NCBI GenBank assembly: GCA_016839555.1
Contig: JAEOUA010000007.1
Span: 64,001 to 128,000 of the forward strand
DNA: 64,000 nucleotides
Direction of reading: 5' to 3'
From: Promethearchaeota archaeon
GTDB lineage: Archaea > Asgardarchaeota > Lokiarchaeia > Sigyniarchaeales > SOKP01
This document shows, one piece after another, positions 4,746 to 16,418 of the stretch. A program made the position numbers and the translations under genes. The notes under the pieces were generated by a model, which had not been told where the DNA came from, made no database searches, and was given only the letters and a program-made list of their open reading frames with translations. How positions within the stretch are numbered: position 1 is the stretch's first letter; every line of letters starts with the position of its first letter.

Positions 4746-5831
4746 ATGAAGACTGAGCATATACTTTATTTTAAAAATTCCAATGAAATGAAGGAAATAA
4801 ATTCAAATACTATCGATTTAATCGTTACATCTCCACCTTATCCTATGATAGAGATGTGGGATGAGATCTTTATTTCAGCAAATCATAAAATTAAAGAATA
4901 TATTAAAAATGGAAAAGGATTTAAAGCATTCCAATTAATGCATGAGGAATTAAATAATACGTGGAGAGAATGTTTTCGGGTATTAAATGAGGGAGGCCTT
5001 ATATGCATTAATATTGGTGATGCTACAAGAAAAGTGGGAAATAGCTTTCAATTATATCCAAACCATGTTAAAATTACTAGCTTTTTTCAAAATTACGATT
5101 GTTTAATATTACCAATAATTTTATGGAGAAAACCAACCAACAGTCCAACTAAATTCATGGGTTCAGGGATGCTACCTACAAATGCCTATGTAACTCTCGA
5201 GCATGAATATATTTTGATTTTTAGAAAAGGTAAAAAGAATAGAAGATTTAAGCCAAAATCGGAGAAAAGATATAATAGCGCCTATTTTTGGGAGGAAAGG
5301 AATAAATGGTTTTCTGATGAATGGTCGGATATAATAGGAAAGTCCCAGTCATTAGAAAATTATTCAGATTTAAGAGAACGATCTGCAGCATTCCCACTTG
5401 AAATTCCTTATCGAATGATAAATATGTTTTCCATTTATGGAGATTATGTGTTGGATCCGTTTTGGGGTACTGGAACAACAACTCTTGCAGCAATGATATC
5501 GGCACGAAATTCATACGGATATGAAATTGACCCAGAGTTCTCTAAAGTATTCCAAAATAATGTTAAAAAAATAAAACCGTTAACAGATTCAACTAATAAA
5601 GAGCGCATAGCAACACATCTTAACTTTCTTAAAAGCTATATTAAGAATAAGCAAGTAAAATATACTTCAGTTCATTATAATTTCCCCGTGATAACTGCTC
5701 AAGAAAAAGACATTTTATTTTACTCGATAAAAGATATTAAAAAATTGGACAATATCTATAATTTAGAGCATGAAAAATTTTCATATAAGAAAAAATACGA
5801 TAAAGAAGTTCATTCATCTTTAATTAAATAA
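4746..5831 (+). CDS. Site-specific DNA methyltransferase (beta class, N4-C/N6-A), no adjacent restriction gene
   Basis: IVTSPPY catalytic motif precedes the VLDPFWGTGTT SAM-binding motif. Confidence 0.9.
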   Translation: MKTEHILYFKNSNEMKEINSNTIDLIVTSPPYPMIEMWDEIFISANHKIKEYIKNGKGFKAFQLMHEELNNTWRECFRVLNEGGLICINIGDATRKVGNSFQLYPNHVKITSFFQNYDCLILPIILWRKPTNSPTKFMGSGMLPTNAYVTLEHEYILIFRKGKKNRRFKPKSEKRYNSAYFWEERNKWFSDEWSDIIGKSQSLENYSDLRERSAAFPLEIPYRMINMFSIYGDYVLDPFWGTGTTTLAAMISARNSYGYEIDPEFSKVFQNNVKKIKPLTDSTNKERIATHLNFLKSYIKNKQVKYTSVHYNFPVITAQEKDILFYSIKDIKKLDNIYNLEHEKFSYKKKYDKEVHSSLIK

Positions 5832-6378: not shown

Positions 6379-7383
6379 ATGTATGATCGCGAACAAATGG
6401 AAGAAATTTTAAAAGAAAACTGTGTTAATCTGCGCTTTCATGCTCGTGGAGGACAAGGAGGAGTCACAGCATCAAACTTATGCGTTGAAGCGTTTTATGG
6501 ATCTGGAATATGTCAACCTAGATTCGGTGCAGAACGAATGGGAAGTCCAACTGAAAGTTATGTACGATTAAGTCTTAATCAAGATTTGATAAGATCAAAT
6601 GAACAAGTATATGCCCCTCATTTTGTTTCTGTGTTAGATCCTTCATTACTCACAGAGGTGGATGTAACTGCGGGAGTTCATGAGGGAGGATGGTTAATAG
6701 TAAATACCACATTAAATCAACAGGATATTCAAGATCTTGTAGGTAGGAAAGATATTAATATCGCTACTATAGATGCTATTCGTATCGCCTTAGATGTTTT
6801 GGGGCGAAATATAACTAATACTATTATACTTGGCGCATTAATTAGAGTTTCTCAATTATTTAGTCTTGAAGAATTATCGGATGCCGTTATGAGAAGATTT
6901 AAAGATAGTATCGCAGCAAAAAATATTGAAGCGATTGAACAAGCAATTGAAGAGACTTGTGTGTATGATATTGGAATTGATATTGATTTTTCCCAAGATA
7001 CCAAAGTCGAATGGCAACAGGTAGAACTTGGCTTACCGGGTTATAAGGAAGTAGATAAAGCCGGAGTATGGTATTGCGATGAAGATGCCATTGAAGTGGG
7101 AAGTGATCAAGTTCATACGGGATCTTGGGGTGAATGGGACATAATATGGGATAAGGACACCTGTACTGATTGTGCTCAATGTTGGTTTATCTGCCCTGAT
7201 TTTGCAATTCTCAGAGAAAAAGGAGAGGATGGAAAATATCACATGGCAGGAATTGATAAAGATCATTGTAAATCGTGTCAGAATTGCTTAGAAATATGTC
7301 CTGTAAATGCAATTACAAAACAATTAAAACAAGGTCCAGCTTCATGTGCTGTACCTGAAGAAGAAGTCAAGGAGGCGAATTGA
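6379..7383 (+). CDS. porG: 2-oxoacid (pyruvate-type):ferredoxin oxidoreductase gamma subunit fused to delta (2x[4Fe-4S]) subunit
   Basis: RFHARGGQGGVT, FGAERMGSP, NTIILGA; C-terminal TGSW...CTDCAQCWFICP and CKSCQNCLEICP. Confidence 0.9.
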   Translation: MYDREQMEEILKENCVNLRFHARGGQGGVTASNLCVEAFYGSGICQPRFGAERMGSPTESYVRLSLNQDLIRSNEQVYAPHFVSVLDPSLLTEVDVTAGVHEGGWLIVNTTLNQQDIQDLVGRKDINIATIDAIRIALDVLGRNITNTIILGALIRVSQLFSLEELSDAVMRRFKDSIAAKNIEAIEQAIEETCVYDIGIDIDFSQDTKVEWQQVELGLPGYKEVDKAGVWYCDEDAIEVGSDQVHTGSWGEWDIIWDKDTCTDCAQCWFICPDFAILREKGEDGKYHMAGIDKDHCKSCQNCLEICPVNAITKQLKQGPASCAVPEEEVKEAN

Positions 7384-7404
7384 ATGAGTATAGAACCTAT
7401 GAAA
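7384..7404 (+). pseudogene. Orphaned original 5' end of porA (MSIEPMK)
   Basis: ATG immediately follows the porG/D stop; encodes MSIEPMK, matching (I)SIQPMK at 14059-14079; the frame then runs into unrelated sequence and stops at 7485. Confidence 0.7.
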
Positions 7405-7791
7405 TCCAATTACACTAAGAAAAGTCAAAACCACTTCTCTTTTTCTAATCTCCTCATGAACAGTTCTTTTTTTCATCGAAACTAAAAATCATAAAACCGA
7501 AAAGAGAGTCACTATATTATAAAAATAAAGAAGCTTTTTTTAAAACAGTTTAACCAATTCTTTAAAAACAAAGAAACAATAAATATATAAATTATTCATT
7601 ATAAAGATACTTGCAGTACTCTTTTACCAAACTTTCTATTTGTTCTTTAGATACTCTTTAATAGTATTATTGCAAACAAAAAATTTAATCCTTTGCTTAG
7701 TACCAGATGTAATTTTATATGGTAAAGTTTTAAGAACATCATTAATGCACTTAATTTTTTCGTTTTTATTCATATTTTCTAACTACCGCTA

Positions 7792-7846
7792 TGTTCACAT
7801 AAATATCAACATTGTTCACATAAATATAAACTCACAAACCATCACA
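7792..7846 (+). repeat. Left 55-bp imperfect inverted repeat (two TGTTCACATAAATAT units, 21-bp period)
   Basis: 44/55 ungapped identity to the reverse complement of 10851-10905; first 13 bp identical. Confidence 0.85.
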
Positions 7847-8143
7847 TCTAACACAAAATTCTAAAAAAGCAATTCTAATTGTGATAATGGTGTGTTGGTG
7901 AAAGGAGACTTATTATCTTCTCTTGATGAATGGAACATAAATATAAGATATCTATTTTCTTAGCTTCTTTTTCATAGAAAAAAGAATCTTGATGATAAAT
8001 TAATGATATGTCTCCTTAAACATAAAAGTGCAAATAAAGCAGAAGGAGGGGTAAATCATCCGTTGGCTTCACATGTCTATTTTTTAATGAATGAATAAAC
8101 CGAATTTAATTCTCAATAAACAATAAAAAGGAGATATAAGAAG

Positions 8144-8293
8144 ATGAATAGCAACGAATTATATGAGCTATATTACAAGGAGGAAAATCTCGTAAAAGTA
8201 TTTGATACTGTTTTTAAAAGGCTAAACCTTAATGAAAGGATAATAAGCCAATTAGAGGAAGAGATCCATCAACTAAAGGAGAAATGCGGTTAG
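8144..8293 (+). CDS. Small hypothetical coiled-coil protein (49 aa)
   Basis: MNSNELYELYYKEENLVKVFDTVFKRLNLNERIISQLEEEIHQLKEKCG, with AAGGAG upstream; below the ORF-track cutoff. Confidence 0.5.
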   Translation: MNSNELYELYYKEENLVKVFDTVFKRLNLNERIISQLEEEIHQLKEKCG

Positions 8294-8686
8294 CAAAGAA
8301 TATCCAATATTCTGAAGATAATCGGAGAGAGAATGCTAGGGTGAATATAATGTTCTATTAAATATGGTTATATATATATTTAAAATCAGTGGTTTTTTAG
8401 ATATTAATACGTATCACTCTATTAAGGCTCTTTTCCTCTGATTTGTTTTATTCTTTTGAATAAAAAAATATTATTCTCTAAGAAAGATGCAATTAAAAAA
8501 GGAGATAAATAGATAAGGATTTCCTCCTCAGATTTAATATATCATATCAGATGAAAACATTTAAAGCTCGCAAGGAATATTTACATAAAGGAAGTTTTTT
8601 AATAAAATTTTATAATATAAATCTATTAATACTATAAAAATAAGCGATAAGAAACTTGAAAAGATTTATGATGAGACCGTATTCTT

Positions 8687-9745
8687 CTAATTCTTCGGAT
8701 TTAATATTTTTTTAAATAAGTCGTATCGCTTTAATGATTCCTCCTTAAAAAACAAAATATTCTGAAATGAATAGGACGGATTACCAATAGCGTGCTGTTT
8801 TTTGGCAAATTCGATGAGGAATTCTCTATATTGCTTAGCACAATCAAATATGGAAAGGCCCTCAGTCGGATCGACTATAGCTGCGAGTAACTGTTGATCA
8901 TTAGAGAAAGTCTTCCACCACTTTTTATAATGAAATTTTGAACCAAAGGCTTTCTCGGCATTTTCAAACATATAAGAACCTATGCTGGCCATGTACTTAT
9001 TTAACTTTAAAGTTATGCGATATTTTTCAGCTAAGGATTTTCCATTAAATCTCTTGTTGAAGAAAAAATACTTTTCTTCCCTTATAGTGCTCTTGTCTGT
9101 CCCAGGCAAACATATAAGATAATTGTATGTAATTGGTAAATCCAACTCATTTCCAATTTTAACTATACGTTTAAACGATTTTAAATAATTGTTTATTCCT
9201 GAATATATTTGTCCATCATTCTTACCTAAAATTTTCCCCATTCTATAGAGTAAGGTTTTCGAGCATGATTCAAGCCCAAAACTAGGAGTTATATCAAATT
9301 TTTTATAGTTTTTTAAATCCTCTTCAGAGCAAAAATCAACACGATCGCTGACTGTGATGTAAAATGACAAGCCCCCCTCCTTCTCGACCATTTTTCCCAA
9401 TTTTTTAAAAAATTTTCTCCGAGCGGACTTTTTAGGTAAGAATATCATATCTGAAATATACAATCGTGTGATTGGCAGCCAGTCTGTTTCCTTTATAGCT
9501 TTTAATTCCTTTATACACTTCTCTGACGATTTAACTCTAACTTTCCTATAACAATTCACAAAATTTAAAGAATTAATACAAAATTTGCATCTATAGTTAC
9601 ATCCTCTAGAAAAATCTATCCATAATTTATTATCATTTGTTAGGTTTTTTTCATATTTCTTAAAAAGATCAAAATTTATTATAGGTAATTCGTCAAGGTT
9701 TTGGATGATTATTCCGATTTTATAACAGAGGCAATTGAAATGGAA
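8687..9745 (-). pseudogene. 5'-truncated radical SAM protein (resembles the B12-binding radical SAM family, lacking the N-terminal domain)
   Basis: The frame of the 8687-9559 ORF stays open to 9745 with no ATG and contains NLDELPIINF...IDFSRGCNYRCKFC (CxxxCxxC at 9578-9601); GLES and LPG motifs downstream. Confidence 0.75.
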
Positions 9746-9981
9746 TTAGATGTTGATTTAGATGTTGATTAAGATAGCGTGTTTTGGCGGGTAAAGAGAT
9801 TGGTTTGTATATGTTGAGTTTGCTGGAAAAATAGGGGGCTTTTTCTTTTTTTGCACGAAACAGCTAAAGGCGCAGCAAGGGGTCAGAGCAATGATGGGAT
9901 AGAAAATTGATCTTGATACAAGAAATAGTAAAATATTTACCATTTGCTGGATGATTGAGAGATGAAAAGGTGGGGTAAAAT

Positions 9982-10188
9982 ATGGTTGAAGACTTGATTG
10001 GGTTTAGGCTAGGGCGAATTAAAAGTTATATTGCCAAAATACTGGAACGGTGGAGCGAAACGGACGCTTCTGTATTCTTGAAAAAGGCAAAGGACGGTAC
10101 CTATTCTGAGGTGGAAAGTGACGCCGTTATGCTGAGACAGTTATTGCTCGATGAGAAGAGGCTAGAGAGGCTATGTGACACTCTTTAG
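9982..10188 (+). CDS. Small hypothetical helical protein (68 aa)
   Basis: ORF with GGTGGGG SD-like sequence upstream; no catalytic motif. Confidence 0.6.
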   Translation: MVEDLIGFRLGRIKSYIAKILERWSETDASVFLKKAKDGTYSEVESDAVMLRQLLLDEKRLERLCDTL

Positions 10189-10850
10189 TGTGTCTTTTTG
10201 ATGTTGTTGCGCTTTATAATATCATCTACTTTATAATATCATACAAAACATTCTTTATTTTTAATTTGGAATTTTTAGGAATTTGTATAGTGGGATTAGA
10301 TTGATGATATGAAAGTCAACATAAAAGCAGAAGAGATGATTCAAATGTTCTTTAGTTGATTAGCTATGGGGGTGAAGCTGTGTCTGATGATAATTGTTTT
10401 ATCATAATCGGTGCCCGATATTATTATTGAGATCCTCTGTTTTTAGAGAGAACTTTTTTATTTAAATTTATACATTATGAATTTTCTTGTTATTTTAAGA
10501 CGTGTTTTATAATCAGTATTTCTATTTAAACGATCTCTAACTTTAAATATTTTTTAAATATATTGCAATATGGATCTACCAACTTTAAACAGAATAAACT
10601 CTTATTCCCCTTTCTGTCACGGAGCAAACCCATACTTGGCAAGAATAATTTATATGCTTTCCTAAGAACAAATAATGCTTAAGACTATAAAAAAGAAAAA
10701 AATAGGAAATAAAAGTATTAAGCCCCTAAGTTAGCAATTCTTTCATGTTTTTGATTCAATAAAATATTTAAATTACTTAAAACTTTTGGGGTGAAGTTTT
10801 TGAGGTTTTAAATTCTAATTTGATTGTTCTTTTAGATCATTGATAGTTTT

Positions 10851-10905
10851 TGTATTGATTTATGAGTTCATATAGATATGAACATTGTTAACATTTATGT
10901 GAACA
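10851..10905 (-). repeat. Right 55-bp imperfect inverted repeat
   Basis: Reverse complement TGTTCACATAAATGTTAACAATGTTCATATCTATATGAACTC... matches 7792-7846; followed by the palindrome AAGTTTATA-TGAA-TATAAACTT at 10910-10931. Confidence 0.85.
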
Positions 10906-11059
10906 GGGCAAGTTTATATGAATATAAACTTCATTGACGCTGGTACAAAACATCGAATCGAAAAGTGGGGGTTTTTTAATTTTCATGAATTAGCTATAAT
11001 CGTGTTCAATGATCAATTCAGCTAATATAATAATAAACTTTTAAAATAAAATTAAAGAT

Positions 11060-11272
11060 ATGAATCATTTTAGATATAATAACTATAGAAATACCATTCC
11101 AGAAAAATCATTAGAAAGAATGAAAAAATATTCGGAAATTAATTGGAAAAAAATAGATCGAAGTGCCCTTGAAAATTATCTTGAAAAATTAGAAAAGACT
11201 GATAAATTAACAACAAAATCTAATATTTATTATAATCTCTTCCAGTTTTTTCTTCTAATTCTAGTAGGTTGA
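11060..11272 (+). CDS. Ribbon-helix-helix/antitoxin-like small protein, possibly degenerate
   Basis: TIPEKSLERMKKYSEINW...RSALENYLEKLE resembles archaeal RHH antitoxins; no toxin partner follows. Confidence 0.5.
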   Translation: MNHFRYNNYRNTIPEKSLERMKKYSEINWKKIDRSALENYLEKLEKTDKLTTKSNIYYNLFQFFLLILVG

Positions 11273-11450
11273 TTTTAATAGTTTTCAGAAATGACCATAA
11301 TTCATTTTTGCTAATTTTTGCTTTAGGATCTAAAATATAATCTGTAATATTTTCATCAATAAACTTCTTTATGGTTTTCAATAATAATCGACATTCCTCG
11401 GAGATAAAGACTTTTTTATAAAAAGGTTTTAATTAATTTTAAAAGAAAAA

Positions 11451-13847
11451 ATGATTTCGCATTTTTTATTCATTGATGAAAATAATTTCAAGGATATTAT
11501 AAAGAAAGATCTAAATAAGATAGTAGGATTAAGTTTTAAAGAGAAATGTCAAATAATTGACATGATTAGTTCTAAAAAGTTTACTAATGAACTCAAATTT
11601 AAATTAAAAGACATCTTAAAGATTGTCTCAAATAAAGAATTGTTGGTTCTTATGGGAAAAATAGATAATAAATCATTACAAAATGAAGTTAATTATGAAA
11701 AAAAGATAAAGGATACCTTAGCTACATCTATAGAAGAAAATAAATCTTCTAAGAGAAAATATATTGATGGTGGAAAGATTGATTTAGACTATTATGGTAA
11801 CATTATCGTAAATAAATATAAGGATATAATAAGAAAAAGAAGAAAGGCTCTCGGATTTCCTACTACACAAAAAAGATTATCCGATATGACTCCTATTATG
11901 CATAATCAAGTAAGAGATATTGATCAGATTGTTTCTAAGAGTGGAAGAACTAGATATTTATGGTTTGGTTTAGTCTATCAAATAACGGTGGTCGAAAAAG
12001 ATGGTAACGAAGGTAAAAAATATGCTGGAATGACAGCTCAAACTTTAAAGCAGAGATGGCATTGGTATGTTAAAACTGCATTGGAAAAACAAGAACATTG
12101 GCACTACCCCATAATAAAATTAATCAGGAAAGTATTATTTGATGAAACGAAATATGATGAAACAGATTTAAAAATAAGGGAAATAGATTGGAATTGGGCA
12201 AAGATTAATGCAATTCTGGAACCTCGATTTAAAAGAGAAGTAAAAATCATTTGTTTTAATTCAAAATCATTAAAAGAAGAGGAAAGAAAATATATAAGAA
12301 AATATAATTTAATTAAAGATGGATTAAATATTAGGGCGGGGGGAGAGGGCGGTCATGCAATCGATTTACCCATGTTTAAAATTGCTAAAATGATCACAAA
12401 AGGAATGAGTTTAAAAGAAATGGAAAAGATCATCAATTGGGTTACTCATACTACTATTTGGGACAGAATTAATGATTATTGGATATCCTATGAGAATTCT
12501 TTATTACTTTTCTTAAGACCTATGCTAAAGTTATTAATTATTTCTAAATTTGAATTATATGAAATAAATGAGACATATAATCGATTTATGCATGATACAA
12601 TAAAGACTTTTTTTGAAGGTCTTTCTTATAGACAATTAATAGATTTGAAGGAAGAAGAATGGAATTCTTTAGATTATGAACATCTCTCTCCTCGGACAAT
12701 AACTGGGCAAGTTAAATATATGATCCCTGGAAAAATCCTGAAAGATTTAATTCTAAGGAATAAAACAGCTATCTCTGCTATTGATGATCCCTCAATAGAG
12801 GATTCACTTTCTATTTATTGTTCGGATGTTGCTCGGCAGCAAATCGTATATCAAATACAGCAACAATTAGATTATGATAGTTGGATAAATGCTAGGAGAC
12901 ATATTTGTGGGAATTTTATTATTAAAAATCTAAAAAATCGTACTATAGAAGCAAAGGAGATATATATGAGAATAGGATATGATGAACCATCTGCTTATAC
13001 TCATACCACGCTAACTCAAATCTATTTTTTTGGTTTAACAACTGAAAAATTAAAAGAAATATTACAAAAAAATCCCTATATTGAAAAATATATTGATCTC
13101 AAAAAGTACATAGATAAATTAAAATCTAAAAAAACCAAATTACCAAAGACTAAAATTGATAAATTATTATTAAGAAAATTAAAAAGTAAAGATATGATAC
13201 AAGAGATAATAGGATGGTCAACTAAGGATTTCTTGAAAGAAGTTAAAAAATATTATCCTAACTTTAAAGAAGCAAAATGGATTGTTAAAGCACCCTATAT
13301 AATAAATAAATTTAGAAATATTTCCCTTCCCTATGATTCTAATGAATTGAATAAAATCGTGATTCATCTAGGTTATAGTAATTCTGTAAAAATTAGTTCA
13401 ATTATTAGAGATATGTTATTTGGTATGGGTTTGAAGGATGCTATAGCATTAGTAAGATATTATCCCGGAATTAAAACGTATCAAGATGCTTTAGAGAAAA
13501 TTAAAGAACTTAACAATTTTAGAAGACTTTTTAAAGCTGGAACATCAAAGAAAGAAACTCTAAATAAGATATTAGATATCTTTTTGAAAAAAGAATTTAT
13601 AACTATTAAACAAATAGCTAATCACACAGGATTTCTTAAAAGAACAATTAGAGGGTACTTGAAGGATTTAACTTCTCAAGGAATTTTGGAGAGAAAAATT
13701 CTTGATGGAAATCCTTTTTGGAAATTAAAAGTTTCAAAGAAAAAATTGGAGAAATTATTTGATGATTCTCCTATCAAATATCCATGGGATGATGATCCTA
13801 GTTTTTCGTTAAAAAATAAAATAAAACCTATAAAAGATAAAGAATAG
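11451..13847 (+). CDS. Large GIY-YIG family (homing-type) endonuclease with C-terminal winged HTH
   Basis: GLVYQIT...KKYAGMT...LKQRW, then LKEEERKYIRKY...GLNIRAGGEGG (Y/Y-G/R/E/N pattern of GIY-YIG); C-terminal ITIKQIANHTGFLKRTIRGYLKDLTSQGILER wHTH. Confidence 0.7.
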   Translation: MISHFLFIDENNFKDIIKKDLNKIVGLSFKEKCQIIDMISSKKFTNELKFKLKDILKIVSNKELLVLMGKIDNKSLQNEVNYEKKIKDTLATSIEENKSSKRKYIDGGKIDLDYYGNIIVNKYKDIIRKRRKALGFPTTQKRLSDMTPIMHNQVRDIDQIVSKSGRTRYLWFGLVYQITVVEKDGNEGKKYAGMTAQTLKQRWHWYVKTALEKQEHWHYPIIKLIRKVLFDETKYDETDLKIREIDWNWAKINAILEPRFKREVKIICFNSKSLKEEERKYIRKYNLIKDGLNIRAGGEGGHAIDLPMFKIAKMITKGMSLKEMEKIINWVTHTTIWDRINDYWISYENSLLLFLRPMLKLLIISKFELYEINETYNRFMHDTIKTFFEGLSYRQLIDLKEEEWNSLDYEHLSPRTITGQVKYMIPGKILKDLILRNKTAISAIDDPSIEDSLSIYCSDVARQQIVYQIQQQLDYDSWINARRHICGNFIIKNLKNRTIEAKEIYMRIGYDEPSAYTHTTLTQIYFFGLTTEKLKEILQKNPYIEKYIDLKKYIDKLKSKKTKLPKTKIDKLLLRKLKSKDMIQEIIGWSTKDFLKEVKKYYPNFKEAKWIVKAPYIINKFRNISLPYDSNELNKIVIHLGYSNSVKISSIIRDMLFGMGLKDAIALVRYYPGIKTYQDALEKIKELNNFRRLFKAGTSKKETLNKILDIFLKKEFITIKQIANHTGFLKRTIRGYLKDLTSQGILERKILDGNPFWKLKVSKKKLEKLFDDSPIKYPWDDDPSFSLKNKIKPIKDKE

Positions 13848-14058
13848 GAATATTATTATATTTTAAAAGAAAATTAAGAATGATACTATAATAATAATTA
13901 ACTAAATTGAGATTAAATATTCCTATAGTTTCATTTTTAATCTAAAAAGTATAAAAATTAATAAGAAGTAATATTAATAATGTAAAAAAATGAAAATATA
14001 TATTTTTTTAAAAAAATGAAGATATACAACTTAAAATCAAGATCAATAGGTGATATTT

Positions 14059-15288
14059 ATTAGTATTCAGCCGATGAAGCTTTTCTTCCGTGAAATAAAA
14101 GAGCCTATTAGAACCACTATGATAGGAAATTATGCCGTGGCAGGCGGCGTTACCCAGACGGATCCTGATGTCATTTGTGCATTTCCAATAACTCCCCAAA
14201 CCCAATCAGTCGAAGGATTATCTGACGTGGTACATCAAGGTAGATTAAAAGCTGCATTTGTAAATGTAGAATCTGAATTAGCAGCCATGAGTTTTTCTAC
14301 TGCTGCGTGTGCTGCAGGTGCTCGTACATTCACTGCGACAGCTTCTCAAGGATATCTTTTAATGACAGAGGCGTTGCCAATGGCGGTGGGTTGGAGAGTA
14401 CCCTTAACCATGATGATTAGTGCCCGAGCTTTTAATTCCCCAAATCTCTCAATTTGGAATAGCTGGGAATTTACTGAAACGAATTCCGAAATTGGATGGA
14501 ATACCATCGTCTCAGAAAATGTTCAAGAGACCTATGATGCAGCCATTTTATCGGTGATGATGTCAGAGGATTCATTATTTCCAACAATGTTTATCCACGA
14601 TGGGTTTATTATTTCTCATTCCGTACAAAATGTGACTTTAATACCTGATGAAACCGTGCGAAAATTAACTCCTAAGAAACCACGACACCGCATTACGCCA
14701 AAAAAACCGGGAACTTGGGGCGGAATAGTCACTCCAAGCTATTTTATGGAATTTAGAAAAAGCCTCGATGTAGATAAAGAGCCAGTATTAGGTATTATGG
14801 AAGATGTTTTCGACCGATTTGAGAAAGCAACGGAGAGAAGATATGATCTTATTGAAACCTATAACTTGGATAACCCCTCAAATACCGCCTTTATAACGAT
14901 GGGATCCATGTGCGGAAATATAGTAAGTTGGATGACTAAAAATAAAGATGTTGGATTAATTAAGCTTCGCACATTTAGACCTTTTCCTTATGAACAATTA
15001 CAGCAAATCGTAGAAGACTATGGTTTAGAAAAATTAATCATTTTAGAAAAATCAGATTCTCTGAATGGAATGCTACCTCCGTTCTCGATGTCAATAGCAT
15101 CAGCACTTTACCCGCTGGGTACCTTGTTCAGAAGCTTTATCGTAGGATTAGGTGGCAGGGATGTCACCAGAGATGAGTTAAACATCGCACGAAAAAAAAT
15201 GGAAAATGTAAAAGATATGAAAGGTAAGCTTTATATGTATCTCGGTGTGAGAGAAACTAAAAATAAAATTTATGGGGTGAATATGTAA
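14059..15288 (+). CDS. porA: 2-oxoacid:ferredoxin oxidoreductase alpha subunit (start ATT 14059 inferred; GTG 14050 or ATG 14074 are alternatives)
   Basis: MIGNYAVA, AFPITPQT, VESELAA, TATASQG, KLRTFRPFP, GLGGRD; AGGTGA SD at 14048-14053. Confidence 0.92.
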   Translation: MSIQPMKLFFREIKEPIRTTMIGNYAVAGGVTQTDPDVICAFPITPQTQSVEGLSDVVHQGRLKAAFVNVESELAAMSFSTAACAAGARTFTATASQGYLLMTEALPMAVGWRVPLTMMISARAFNSPNLSIWNSWEFTETNSEIGWNTIVSENVQETYDAAILSVMMSEDSLFPTMFIHDGFIISHSVQNVTLIPDETVRKLTPKKPRHRITPKKPGTWGGIVTPSYFMEFRKSLDVDKEPVLGIMEDVFDRFEKATERRYDLIETYNLDNPSNTAFITMGSMCGNIVSWMTKNKDVGLIKLRTFRPFPYEQLQQIVEDYGLEKLIILEKSDSLNGMLPPFSMSIASALYPLGTLFRSFIVGLGGRDVTRDELNIARKKMENVKDMKGKLYMYLGVRETKNKIYGVNM

Positions 15289-15289
15289 A

Positions 15290-16418
15290 ATGTCAAATGG
15301 AGATAGAAATATTATAACGATGGAAGATATATTAGCGAGAGAAGGTAAATGCAATGTACTATTTCTAAACTATGATAACGAGGCATTTATGAACACCGGA
15401 ATCCAAGGGAATTCTACATTTTAGTAGAATTCTGGAAAAATCTGGTGGTACGCCTCCATATGCAAGTACAACTACAGGACCAGCAGGAGAAAAAATACCC
15501 GGAAAAGTTGGAGTGAAACAAGATTTAGTCACTCCATTTGCATTTTATGGTTCAAAAAAATTGTTTTTAGCAACGGTAAATCCAGCATATCCTCTTGATT
15601 TAATGGGAAAAATAATGGATGCCCTTAAATCCGACGGATCAGCTTTTATACAGGCCTTAAGTGATTGTATGAGAGGCTGGAGGCATGATGCTAAGGATGC
15701 TTTGAAAATCTCTAAACTTGCGACTGATAGTGGGTATTGGCCTTTATATACCATTCGAGTTGAAGAGGGTATACCCGTATTTTCATATTATAGAGGACTT
15801 GATATTGATAAAGATAAGTTTGTGGAATTTTTGCAATCTATGGGGCGCTTTAGGCATCTTTTTAAACCAAAATTTATGGAAAAAGAAATCAATGAAATAA
15901 TCTTTCAAACGGAACAAAGAAACAAGAAGATAAAGGGGTTAATTGAACAGTTTGGCGCTGATAAACCTAAAGACATCTATAGAATTGATAGAAAAGCATT
16001 AAAACCACAGGAGCATTTGCTTCCTGGACATGGCTTATGCCCAGGGTGCGGTGCGGGCATGGTTCTTTTTCAAATGGCTACAGCAGCTTATCAAGTAGCT
16101 GGTAATAATATGATCTATGTAAATAATACAAGCTGCTCGGAAGTTTCAACATCAAAAGATAATGTGACCTCTTGGAAAGTACCTTGGGTACATCATCTCT
16201 TTGAATCAGGTGCCACCGTTGCTGATGCTCTGGCAACTGCTTATAAAATTTTGAAAAAGAAAGGTTTATTTGGAAAACCAATGGAAGAAGAGGTGCCTTA
16301 TGTTATTCATATCGGTGGGGATGGCAGTACTTATGATATAGGATTTCAATTTTTGAAAGCAGCATTAATTCGGACCAGTACTTTCATGGAAATGAGCGAA
16401 CTTTTAAACGAAAAATAA
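15290..16418 (+). CDS. porB: 2-oxoacid:ferredoxin oxidoreductase beta subunit, circularly permuted and intron-containing: join(15290..15407,15439..16418), 365 aa
   Basis: Exon 1 MSNGDR...NYDNEAFMNTGIQ; exon 2 (E)SGGTPPYASTTTGPAG...LSDCMRGW...PGHGLCPGCG...TSCSEV...GGDGSTYDIG. The ORF track shows only 15513-16418. Confidence 0.88.
15408..15438 (+). other. Putative 31-nt archaeal bulge-helix-bulge intron in porB mRNA
   Basis: Central helix TCCA/TGGA with 3-nt bulges AGG and AAA, 9-bp intron stem, 7-bp exon-exon stem; removal restores the frame and deletes in-frame TAG TAG. Confidence 0.85.

Follow-up and report, generated by a model that had tools for sequence, protein, structure and literature searches.

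The junction between the genes porGD and porA was analyzed in a 64,000-nucleotide stretch of a Promethearchaeota genome, hereafter the window (contig 6, positions 64001-128000, of a 3.74-Mb assembly with 92% completeness; labelled G000 in the comparisons). In the window, porA is found 6.7 kb from porGD, and the two genes are separated by an island that contains a large open reading frame (ORF) of 798 amino acids (aa). The best reading of the island is that it is a cargo-laden form of a cassette living between porGD and porA in this Promethearchaeota family. The cassette is fairly likely to be built around a free-standing GIY-YIG homing endonuclease gene, whose spread would be accompanied by co-conversion of the porA 5' end, its promoter and its ribosome-binding site.

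The porGD ORF (6379-7383) ends with TGA, and ATG AGT ATA GAA CCT ATG AAA follows directly at 7384-7404, after which the sequence is unrelated to porA. At the right junction, AGGTGA (14048-14053) and then TATTT precede ATT AGT ATT CAG CCG ATG AAG (14059-14079), which continues into an intact PorA ORF of 412 aa with the Pfam families POR_N and PFOR_II; porB lies downstream of porA. The coordinates and letters of both junctions had been given in an earlier sequence-only reading and were correct on re-reading. The two 21-mers share 15 of 21 bases (71%). This likeness is not due to chance, because the left copy is identical at 21 of 21 bases to the genuine start of porA in the same-genus genome G001 and in the metagenome contigs L098/L099, which are the closest relatives; in all of these the porA start with this 21-mer stands directly after porGD. 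The match to L099 extends one base further, through T7405. PorA of the window is 94% identical in amino acids to that of the empty-site relatives L098/L099, and its translation probably starts at ATT 14059. The features around the two junctions are as follows.

6379-7383, + strand: porGD, the gamma-delta fusion subunit of pyruvate/2-oxoacid:ferredoxin oxidoreductase, intact (Pfam POR, 1.5e-27, and Fer4 families; 90% nucleotide identity to L099).
7384-7405, + strand: left remnant, apparently the recipient's own porA codons 1-7 plus T, heading a 33-codon junk ORF (21/21 match to G001 and L098/L099).
13942-14016, + strand: AT-rich block with the core TAAAAAGTWTAAAAATTAATA (about 13944-13964), a candidate promoter for porA-porB with elements resembling the B recognition element and TATA box (alignment of the same-genus G000, L053 and G004, with the G006 row disregarded).
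14048-14053, + strand: Shine-Dalgarno (SD)-like AGGTGA, 5 nt before ATT (a like motif in 9 of 11 non-adjacent junctions).
14059-14091, + strand: putative imported porA 5' end, codons 1-11, possibly to about codon 20 (14118) (13 of 33 nt differ from L098/L099).
14059-15288, + strand: porA, intact, with the probable start ATT 14059 and the alternatives GTG 14050 and ATG 14074 (Pfam POR_N, 6.5e-54, and PFOR_II).

Eighteen related loci were examined first, and in 15 of them ATG-Ser-[Ile/Val]-Glu-Pro-Met begins within 4-20 nt after porGD. When all 135 family genomes were scanned for the porA start pattern, it was recovered with a canonical start codon in 96 (mostly ATG, with TTG in 8 and GTG in 2) and with ATT, ATC or ATA (ATH) in 8. 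In canonical-start genomes whose porGD and porA share a contig, the two genes are at most about 25 nt apart, except in one lineage with about 90 nt. Adjacent porGD and porA with a canonical start codon were counted in about 100 related genomes and contigs. These arrangements establish porGD directly before SD, ATG and porA as the ancestral and common state. The sequence-only reading had predicted exactly such an empty site, with porGD immediately before an MSIEPM-type porA. The two genes are linked in the relatives, and the N-termini of their PorA proteins all read MS[IV]EPM[KR]xFF...KEPI.T, which leaves no place for the alternative junction at CCTAT (MSIEPIRTT...) that had also been offered.

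Two observations on these sites are added. The lineage with the spacer of about 90 nt (L015, L069, L144, L202; G023, G052 and metagenome relatives) shows an AT-rich spacer and a normal ATG start, and the spacer may be the scar of another kind of insertion. The G012 assembly breaks exactly between porGD (ending 30 nt from the end of C249) and porA (starting at residue 17, C208), and the G004 assembly breaks at the same spot; these breaks may reflect a mixture of island and empty alleles in the sample.

Junctions that are occupied, or that carry a scar or break at this place, were recognized as follows.

G000 (window): 6.7 kb between porGD and porA.
G006: 5.6 kb between porGD and porA.
G004: contig break at the junction.
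G117: 2.4 kb between porGD and porA.
G070: 2.4 kb between porGD and porA.
G075: homologue of the nuclease 325 nt downstream of porGD, followed by the end of the contig.
L053 (identical to L100): 9.4 kb between porGD and porA.
L054-56: 6.85 kb between porGD and porA.
L115: 2.0 kb between porGD and porA.
L163: 6.2 kb between porGD and porA.
L128: porGD off the contig; nuclease fragment upstream of porA.
G005: 45-nt scar between porGD and porA.

In a PorA tree built on residues 25 to the end, the island bearers fall at six or more separate places among the empty-site sequences. A nuclease gene is found between conserved host genes, present or absent at one site among close relatives, as is characteristic of homing genes. 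Most islands share the nuclease gene or a fragment of it, together with an ATH start, a recoded porA 5' end and, in most, an SD motif, and the AT-rich block is common to the islands within the genus of G000. Outside the 90-nt spacer type, 11 distinct non-adjacent junction sequences were found, with the starts ATT (6), ATA (3) and ATC (2); the remaining three non-adjacent sequences belong to the 90-nt spacer lineage and start with ATG. Among the distinct junction sequences with porGD adjacent, an ATT start is seen in 3 of 72. Four junctions (G004, G005, G006, and G070) have in-frame stops immediately before the ATH codon, a GAGGT/AGGTG-type motif is located 5-8 nt before this codon in 9 of 11 (weak or absent in G070 and L128), and Ser-[Ile/Val]-[Glu/Gln]-Pro is retained at codons 2-5 despite synonymous changes, with Ser codons of both AGY and TCN types. 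These upstream stops, SD-type motifs and synonymously conserved codons point to translation of the ATH-type porA from the near-cognate ATH codon. G006 (L026, C3) has, in addition, about 1.4 kb between porA and porB with a cold-shock-protein-like gene on the opposite strand, which makes a second insertion point within the por operon.

Two pairs of island-bearing and empty alleles were compared base by base. Between G000 and the empty L098/L099, the nucleotide identity is 90.0% for porGD and 88.3% for porA. The first 33 nt of the G000 porA include 13 differences, against 11% across the rest of the gene. This 5' end resembles those of the island-type alleles of G005, G004 and G006 (AAG CTT TTC TTC CGT); it has ATT for ATG, and its other changes are mostly synonymous. 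In the second pair, G117 (island) and L131 (empty), the identity is 96.8% for porGD and 94.1% for porA, and the starts of porA read as follows.

G117 (island): codons 1-3 ATT AGT GTT; codon 8 CTT; codon 10 TTT.
L131 (empty): codons 1-3 ATG TCA GTA; codon 8 TTA; codon 10 TTC.

After codon 10, 38 identical bases follow. Positions 3, 9, 22 and 24 of porA are altered in both pairs, and the porGD side shows no cluster of differences. The base-by-base comparisons thus demonstrate, in both close pairs, a patch of evidently foreign origin over the first 10-11 porA codons. The patch cannot be mapped in L054, to which all available sequences are about 75% identical and which has no close empty-site relative.

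The patches also bear on the possibility that the insertion is old and was inherited vertically, with synonymous drift and selection on translation initiation after the split of the operon, and with the empty sites as losses. Within the genus, synonymous sites are almost saturated (75-82% nucleotide identity), and start-codon variation (TTG, GTG, and ATT) occurs without islands, both of which such a history would accommodate. It leaves unexplained that L098/L099 and L131, as sister lineages, have empty sites and an unrecoded 5' end, that the left remnant has not drifted from the relatives' porA start, and that a Ser codon turned from TCA to AGT inside a 94% identical gene. Because this codon is changed at all three bases in a close pair, import is likelier than drift, and the vertical history is considered quite improbable.

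The right-hand 5' end of porA, together with the SD motif and the AT-rich block, is foreign to the rest of the gene and travels with the island. The sequence-only reading, in which incoming DNA rebuilds the porA 5' end with its own ribosome-binding site, holds to this extent. Its mechanism, in which an integrative element would recombine with ATGAA or CCTAT as the core, does not agree with the data: the left junctions differ among the islands, and the foreign tract runs past the end of the left remnant. An integrase-type element, in which an attP with a porA 5' mimic recombines with attB at the short identical core ATGAA, would explain the direct, diverged duplications of the target 5' end with an identical core in G000 (ATGAA) and L054 (ATGAAAATT). 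It also has a precedent in prophages carrying a replacement gene end, since phage 21 and e14 insert in the Escherichia coli icd gene and bring a synonymously diverged replacement end. Against it, no tyrosine or serine recombinase or transposase was recognized in the main ORFs of G000 (Pfam, NCBIfam, PHROG, and PADLOC) or in the called genes of L053 and L054 (precomputed Pfam), the other islands having been read as ORF lists only. Most islands have no left repeat, and neither a second copy nor a circular form is present in the genome. The two G000 copies share only ATGAA; the foreign tract passes this core to codon 11 or beyond and host codons 8-11 are in neither copy, so that no single crossover core can be drawn. 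The integrase-type element is thus very improbable. A tRNA-targeting element is not indicated either, as tRNA and Rfam family searches of the whole window gave no match. A DDE transposon or insertion sequence was also considered and rejected: the inverted repeats are internal (7792-10905), no transposase was recognized in the main ORFs, and the flanking repeat is 21 nt at 71% identity.

The left junctions are more readily understood under the homing cassette. Among the islands, only G000 and L054 keep a left remnant. These remnants are independent of each other, and their ends, after ATGAAA in G000 and after ATGAAAATT in L054, are separated by 3 nt; the ends are read as the unresected left end of a break. 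In G117, L163, G070, L115 and the G006/L053 type, the left break is located in the last porGD codons, upstream of the SD motif and without a repeat. Differing left junctions, the lack of a common core and the loss of codons 8-11 are all expected from break repair off an island-bearing template.

In the proposed mechanism, the nuclease would cut an empty allele near the porA start, and the break would be repaired from an island-bearing copy, so that the nuclease gene, neighboring DNA and a short co-conversion tract of porA are copied; the conversion tract would be created by resection at the break. In G000 and, independently, in L054, the repair was probably one-sided. The porA side would have been repaired through homology, while the porGD side would have been joined without homology at about the break after one-ended copying, leaving 7-8 codons of the recipient as the remnant. 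porA would then be translated from ATT through the imported SD motif and probably transcribed from the imported AT-rich block. The role of this block as the porA-porB promoter is suggested by its appearance, and an uncoupling of porA from the porGD promoter, as proposed in the sequence-only reading, is plausible. The synonymous and ATG-to-ATH changes would make the island allele a poor substrate.

The nuclease itself is encoded by the 798-aa ORF, with the following predicted parts.

11451-13847, + strand: free-standing GIY-YIG nuclease with helix-turn-helix (HTH) modules, candidate homing endonuclease, 798 aa (conserved residues, model fold, and language-model features).
11931-12338, + strand: GIY-YIG domain, about aa 161-296.
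Within 11451-13847, + strand: tandem HTH modules, about aa 302-412 and 422-548; winged HTH, about aa 697-774.

In a family alignment of 18-21 relatives, Y176, R202, W203, E278, N293 and a GG.GG turn are invariant or nearly so, and their order and spacing correspond to those of the GIY-YIG motif. Both halves of the motif are present: G-[LI]-V-Y-x-I, in which Y176 is invariant, is followed 13 residues on by x-Y/I-[AG]-G-x-T, and the two motif strands appear as E34-42 and E48-56 in the AF2 model. R202 (with W203), E278 and N293 are invariant in 18 sequences, and the spacing from E to N is 15 residues, presumably as in I-TevI. The AF2 model of residues 140-420 has a pLDDT of 83.9. In an exhaustive VIA search against 48,161 representative PDB chains, the I-TevI catalytic domain ranked first with a Z of 8.1, which the tool rates as middling and not far above background (rmsd 2.3 Å, 89 of 92 residues, 20% identity), and T4 EndoII (Z 6.6) and PD-T4-3 (Z 5.5) were further matches. 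Structural matches 3' of the nuclease domain comprise two tandem HTHs, the first MarA-like (Z 8.0) and the other with a Z of 8.4, and a winged helix (Z 9-9.5); such modules would fit a protein that reads a long DNA site. With language-model features of residues 155-310, 25 of the 30 nearest named Atlas clusters were SegE_GIY-YIG, and the score for PF19835 was 0.93. The agreement of residues, predicted fold and language-model features argues for a GIY-YIG nuclease with HTH modules. The guess of the sequence-only reading that the recoding gives the element immunity to its own nuclease fits this assignment of the large ORF.

Relatives of the 798-aa protein are rare: 44 were found among 1.84 billion representative proteins, and 18 of 121 family genomes contain one. 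The two best database relatives are both in porGD-porA islands. A contig scan with the single 798-aa protein as the query found no relative. More distant relatives (32-35% identity, 690-975 aa) are encoded at L043, L044, L046, L047 and L048 (G062, G023, G115, G099, and G119). At these five loci, from three genera, the gene lies directly upstream of a radical S-adenosylmethionine (SAM) gene of about 270 aa, with a ROK-type kinase beyond in three of the five; they may represent a second homing site or a domesticated paralogue.

The nuclease gene is found in various states. It is of full length in G000, L053 and L163, interrupted by a stop codon in G117, and reduced to a fragment in G006 and L128; the L054 copy is shorter and in inverted orientation, and a relative also lies in or at the start of the G075 island. 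This spread of states fits the invasion-decay-loss cycle of homing genes. When the G000 island was compared with 10 other islands (blastn and tblastx), matches were limited to 11658-14016, within the 798-aa ORF and the AT-rich block that follows, and nothing left of 11658 was matched. The islands of G000 and G006 have only the right-hand ~720 bp in common. With blastn, 13943-14016 matched G004, G006 and L053. The other cargo is unrelated between islands: L053 carries a major facilitator superfamily transporter and a B12-radical SAM gene, L163 has corrinoid methyltransferase genes, and L115 contains a nucleotidyltransferase/HEPN-like pair. The left part of the G000 island contains the following features.

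7406-11450: cargo or debris, small ORFs and a nested 3.1-kb segment (GC content 0.21-0.34; no match in the other islands examined).
7792-10905: nested segment bounded by 55-nt inverted repeats (7792-7846 and 10851-10905, 80% complementary) with GTTCACATAAATAT-type units, found by repeat search.
8687-9700, - strand: fragment of a B12-binding radical SAM gene, 5'-truncated, with CxxxCxxC kept and the B12 domain and start codon gone (NCBIfam B12-rSAM models, positions about 180-310, E 5e-7 to 1e-4).

Short pieces related to the repeats of the nested segment are located elsewhere in G000, at C4:15445-15759 (93%, 81% identity) and C7:225994-226061. The presence of these pieces suggests a repeated and possibly mobile element.

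Several observations weigh against the homing cassette, besides the middling score of the fold match. The nuclease domain alone and the 21 family members gave no Pfam match at E up to 10, including PF01541 and PF19835; phmmer and the family profile gave no GIY-YIG match against PDB sequences; and Foldseek against PDB gave none at E ≤ 0.001, with GIY-YIG structures ranked low. PADLOC, PHROGs and NCBIfam matched only the winged-helix tail of the ORF. The islands of G070 and L115 have no nuclease gene, and the left 4 kb of the G000 island has no known donor. The divergence of the nuclease (62% aa identity to L053, 43% to G117) roughly tracks host distance, and recent long-range transfer is therefore not shown. 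Homing presupposes that donor and recipient DNA meet within the same cell, and such an encounter is not known from these archaea. ATT starts without an island occur in G124, G137 and L102, so ATH starts are not strictly island-borne. Only two island/empty pairs are close enough for patch mapping, and although the foreign patches of 10-11 codons agree with co-conversion, their clustering is modest: a simple count test on the first porA window gave P = 2e-4 to 2e-5, but other 30-33-nt windows of the same genes reach 7 differences (against 8) and 12 (against 13), and for this reason more weight is given to the pattern than to the P value.

Part of these observations is also expected from a recombination hotspot without a driving nuclease, where homology-facilitated illegitimate recombination brought in foreign DNA with an island-type porA allele by crossover within the homologous porA and by end joining on the left; the GIY-YIG protein would be a passenger such as a defence nuclease or a regulator. 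The variable cargo and differing left junctions, the two islands without the nuclease gene and the lack of detectable sequence-family membership of the nuclease favor this explanation, which likewise predicts a foreign 5' patch and a left remnant. It does not explain why insertions at six or more tree positions struck the same few bases, why most islands carry the nuclease or a fragment, and why two remnants end 3 nt apart. The hotspot is thus regarded as unlikely, though deserving attention, and the homing cassette with co-conversion is preferred.

Under the homing cassette, the ATH start and synonymous changes can be interpreted as resistance to cleavage in an arms race over the start codon, a proposal that is put forward tentatively. 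A comparison of contigs L102 (388) and L104 (10010) over 11,221 bases, beginning at the porA start, gave 4 differences, among them the change from ATG to ATT. The upstream porGD stop also differs between the two contigs (TAA/TAG), which places two single-nucleotide polymorphisms within 5 nt at the candidate nuclease target. These polymorphisms hint at selection there.

Free-standing homing endonucleases are textbook knowledge in T-even phages, and Belle et al. (2002) reportedly described intronless homing of the Seg endonucleases of T4-like phages. To our knowledge, there is little such evidence from cellular archaeal chromosomes, and in the literature searched no report of free-standing homing in an Asgard chromosome was found. 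The seg genes of T4 are intergenic GIY-YIG genes whose spread, termed intronless homing, involves co-conversion, and they can displace promoters or introduce them (PMC2988022). The cassette resembles T4 SegA-G in that a GIY-YIG gene stands alone between two conserved co-transcribed genes with a patchy distribution among close relatives, the flanking gene is apparently co-converted, the cassette would supply downstream expression signals, and its language-model neighbors are of the SegE type. Unlike T4 Seg, the cassette is hosted by an Asgard archaeal chromosome, encodes a 798-aa protein of 3-4 times the size, in which at least five HTH-type modules are counted, and carries kilobases of unrelated cargo. 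Its converted tract lies right at the insertion site, whereas the cut in T4 may be hundreds of bases away. The candidate resistant allele differs as well in changing the start codon to ATH.

I-TevI of the T4 td intron (PDB 1ln0) offers the closest catalytic-domain fold, with the same Y...Y...R...E...N order and a nuclease domain tethered to a helix-turn-helix DNA-binding region. In contrast to I-TevI, the 798-aa ORF is located outside an intron, no zinc-finger linker is seen, and there is no detectable sequence-profile similarity. With phage 21 and e14, the island shares the rescue of an interrupted gene by an incoming recoded end and the persistence of the displaced host piece as a remnant. 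Those elements replace a 3' end through integrase att recombination, whereas here a 5' end together with a promoter-like block and an SD motif is replaced, with no integrase found and no fixed core.

Other genes around the junction were also inspected. The porB gene shows a frame switch at 15393-15424, one frame covering 15281-15424 and another 15393-16418. Its product (window 15290-16418) is circularly permuted through the thiamine pyrophosphate motif, starting with ...NYDNEAFMNTG and ending with GGDG..DIGF. Because a permuted PorB of 365-375 aa is also found in all four family relatives examined (L004, L009, L013, and L014), this form represents the usual arrangement in the family rather than a local rearrangement. 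An N6/N4 DNA methylase gene is located at 4746-5831 of the window (Pfam N6_N4_Mtase, 2.5e-40), 0.5 kb upstream of porGD; no restriction partner was noted nearby.

A wider proposal, held with considerable reserve, is that giant GIY-YIG homing endonucleases move between Promethearchaeota cells and ferry kilobases of DNA into the por operon, and that ATH starts and recoding were selected as cleavage-resistant even in G124, G137 and L102. If homing is true, it would mean frequent DNA exchange and homologous repair between Promethearchaeota cells. Selfish nucleases would then build genomic islands and rewire the expression of operons, and non-canonical start codons in an essential gene would have a selective explanation. 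The family would also provide a compact set of long-site nucleases whose natural target could be read from the empty sites.

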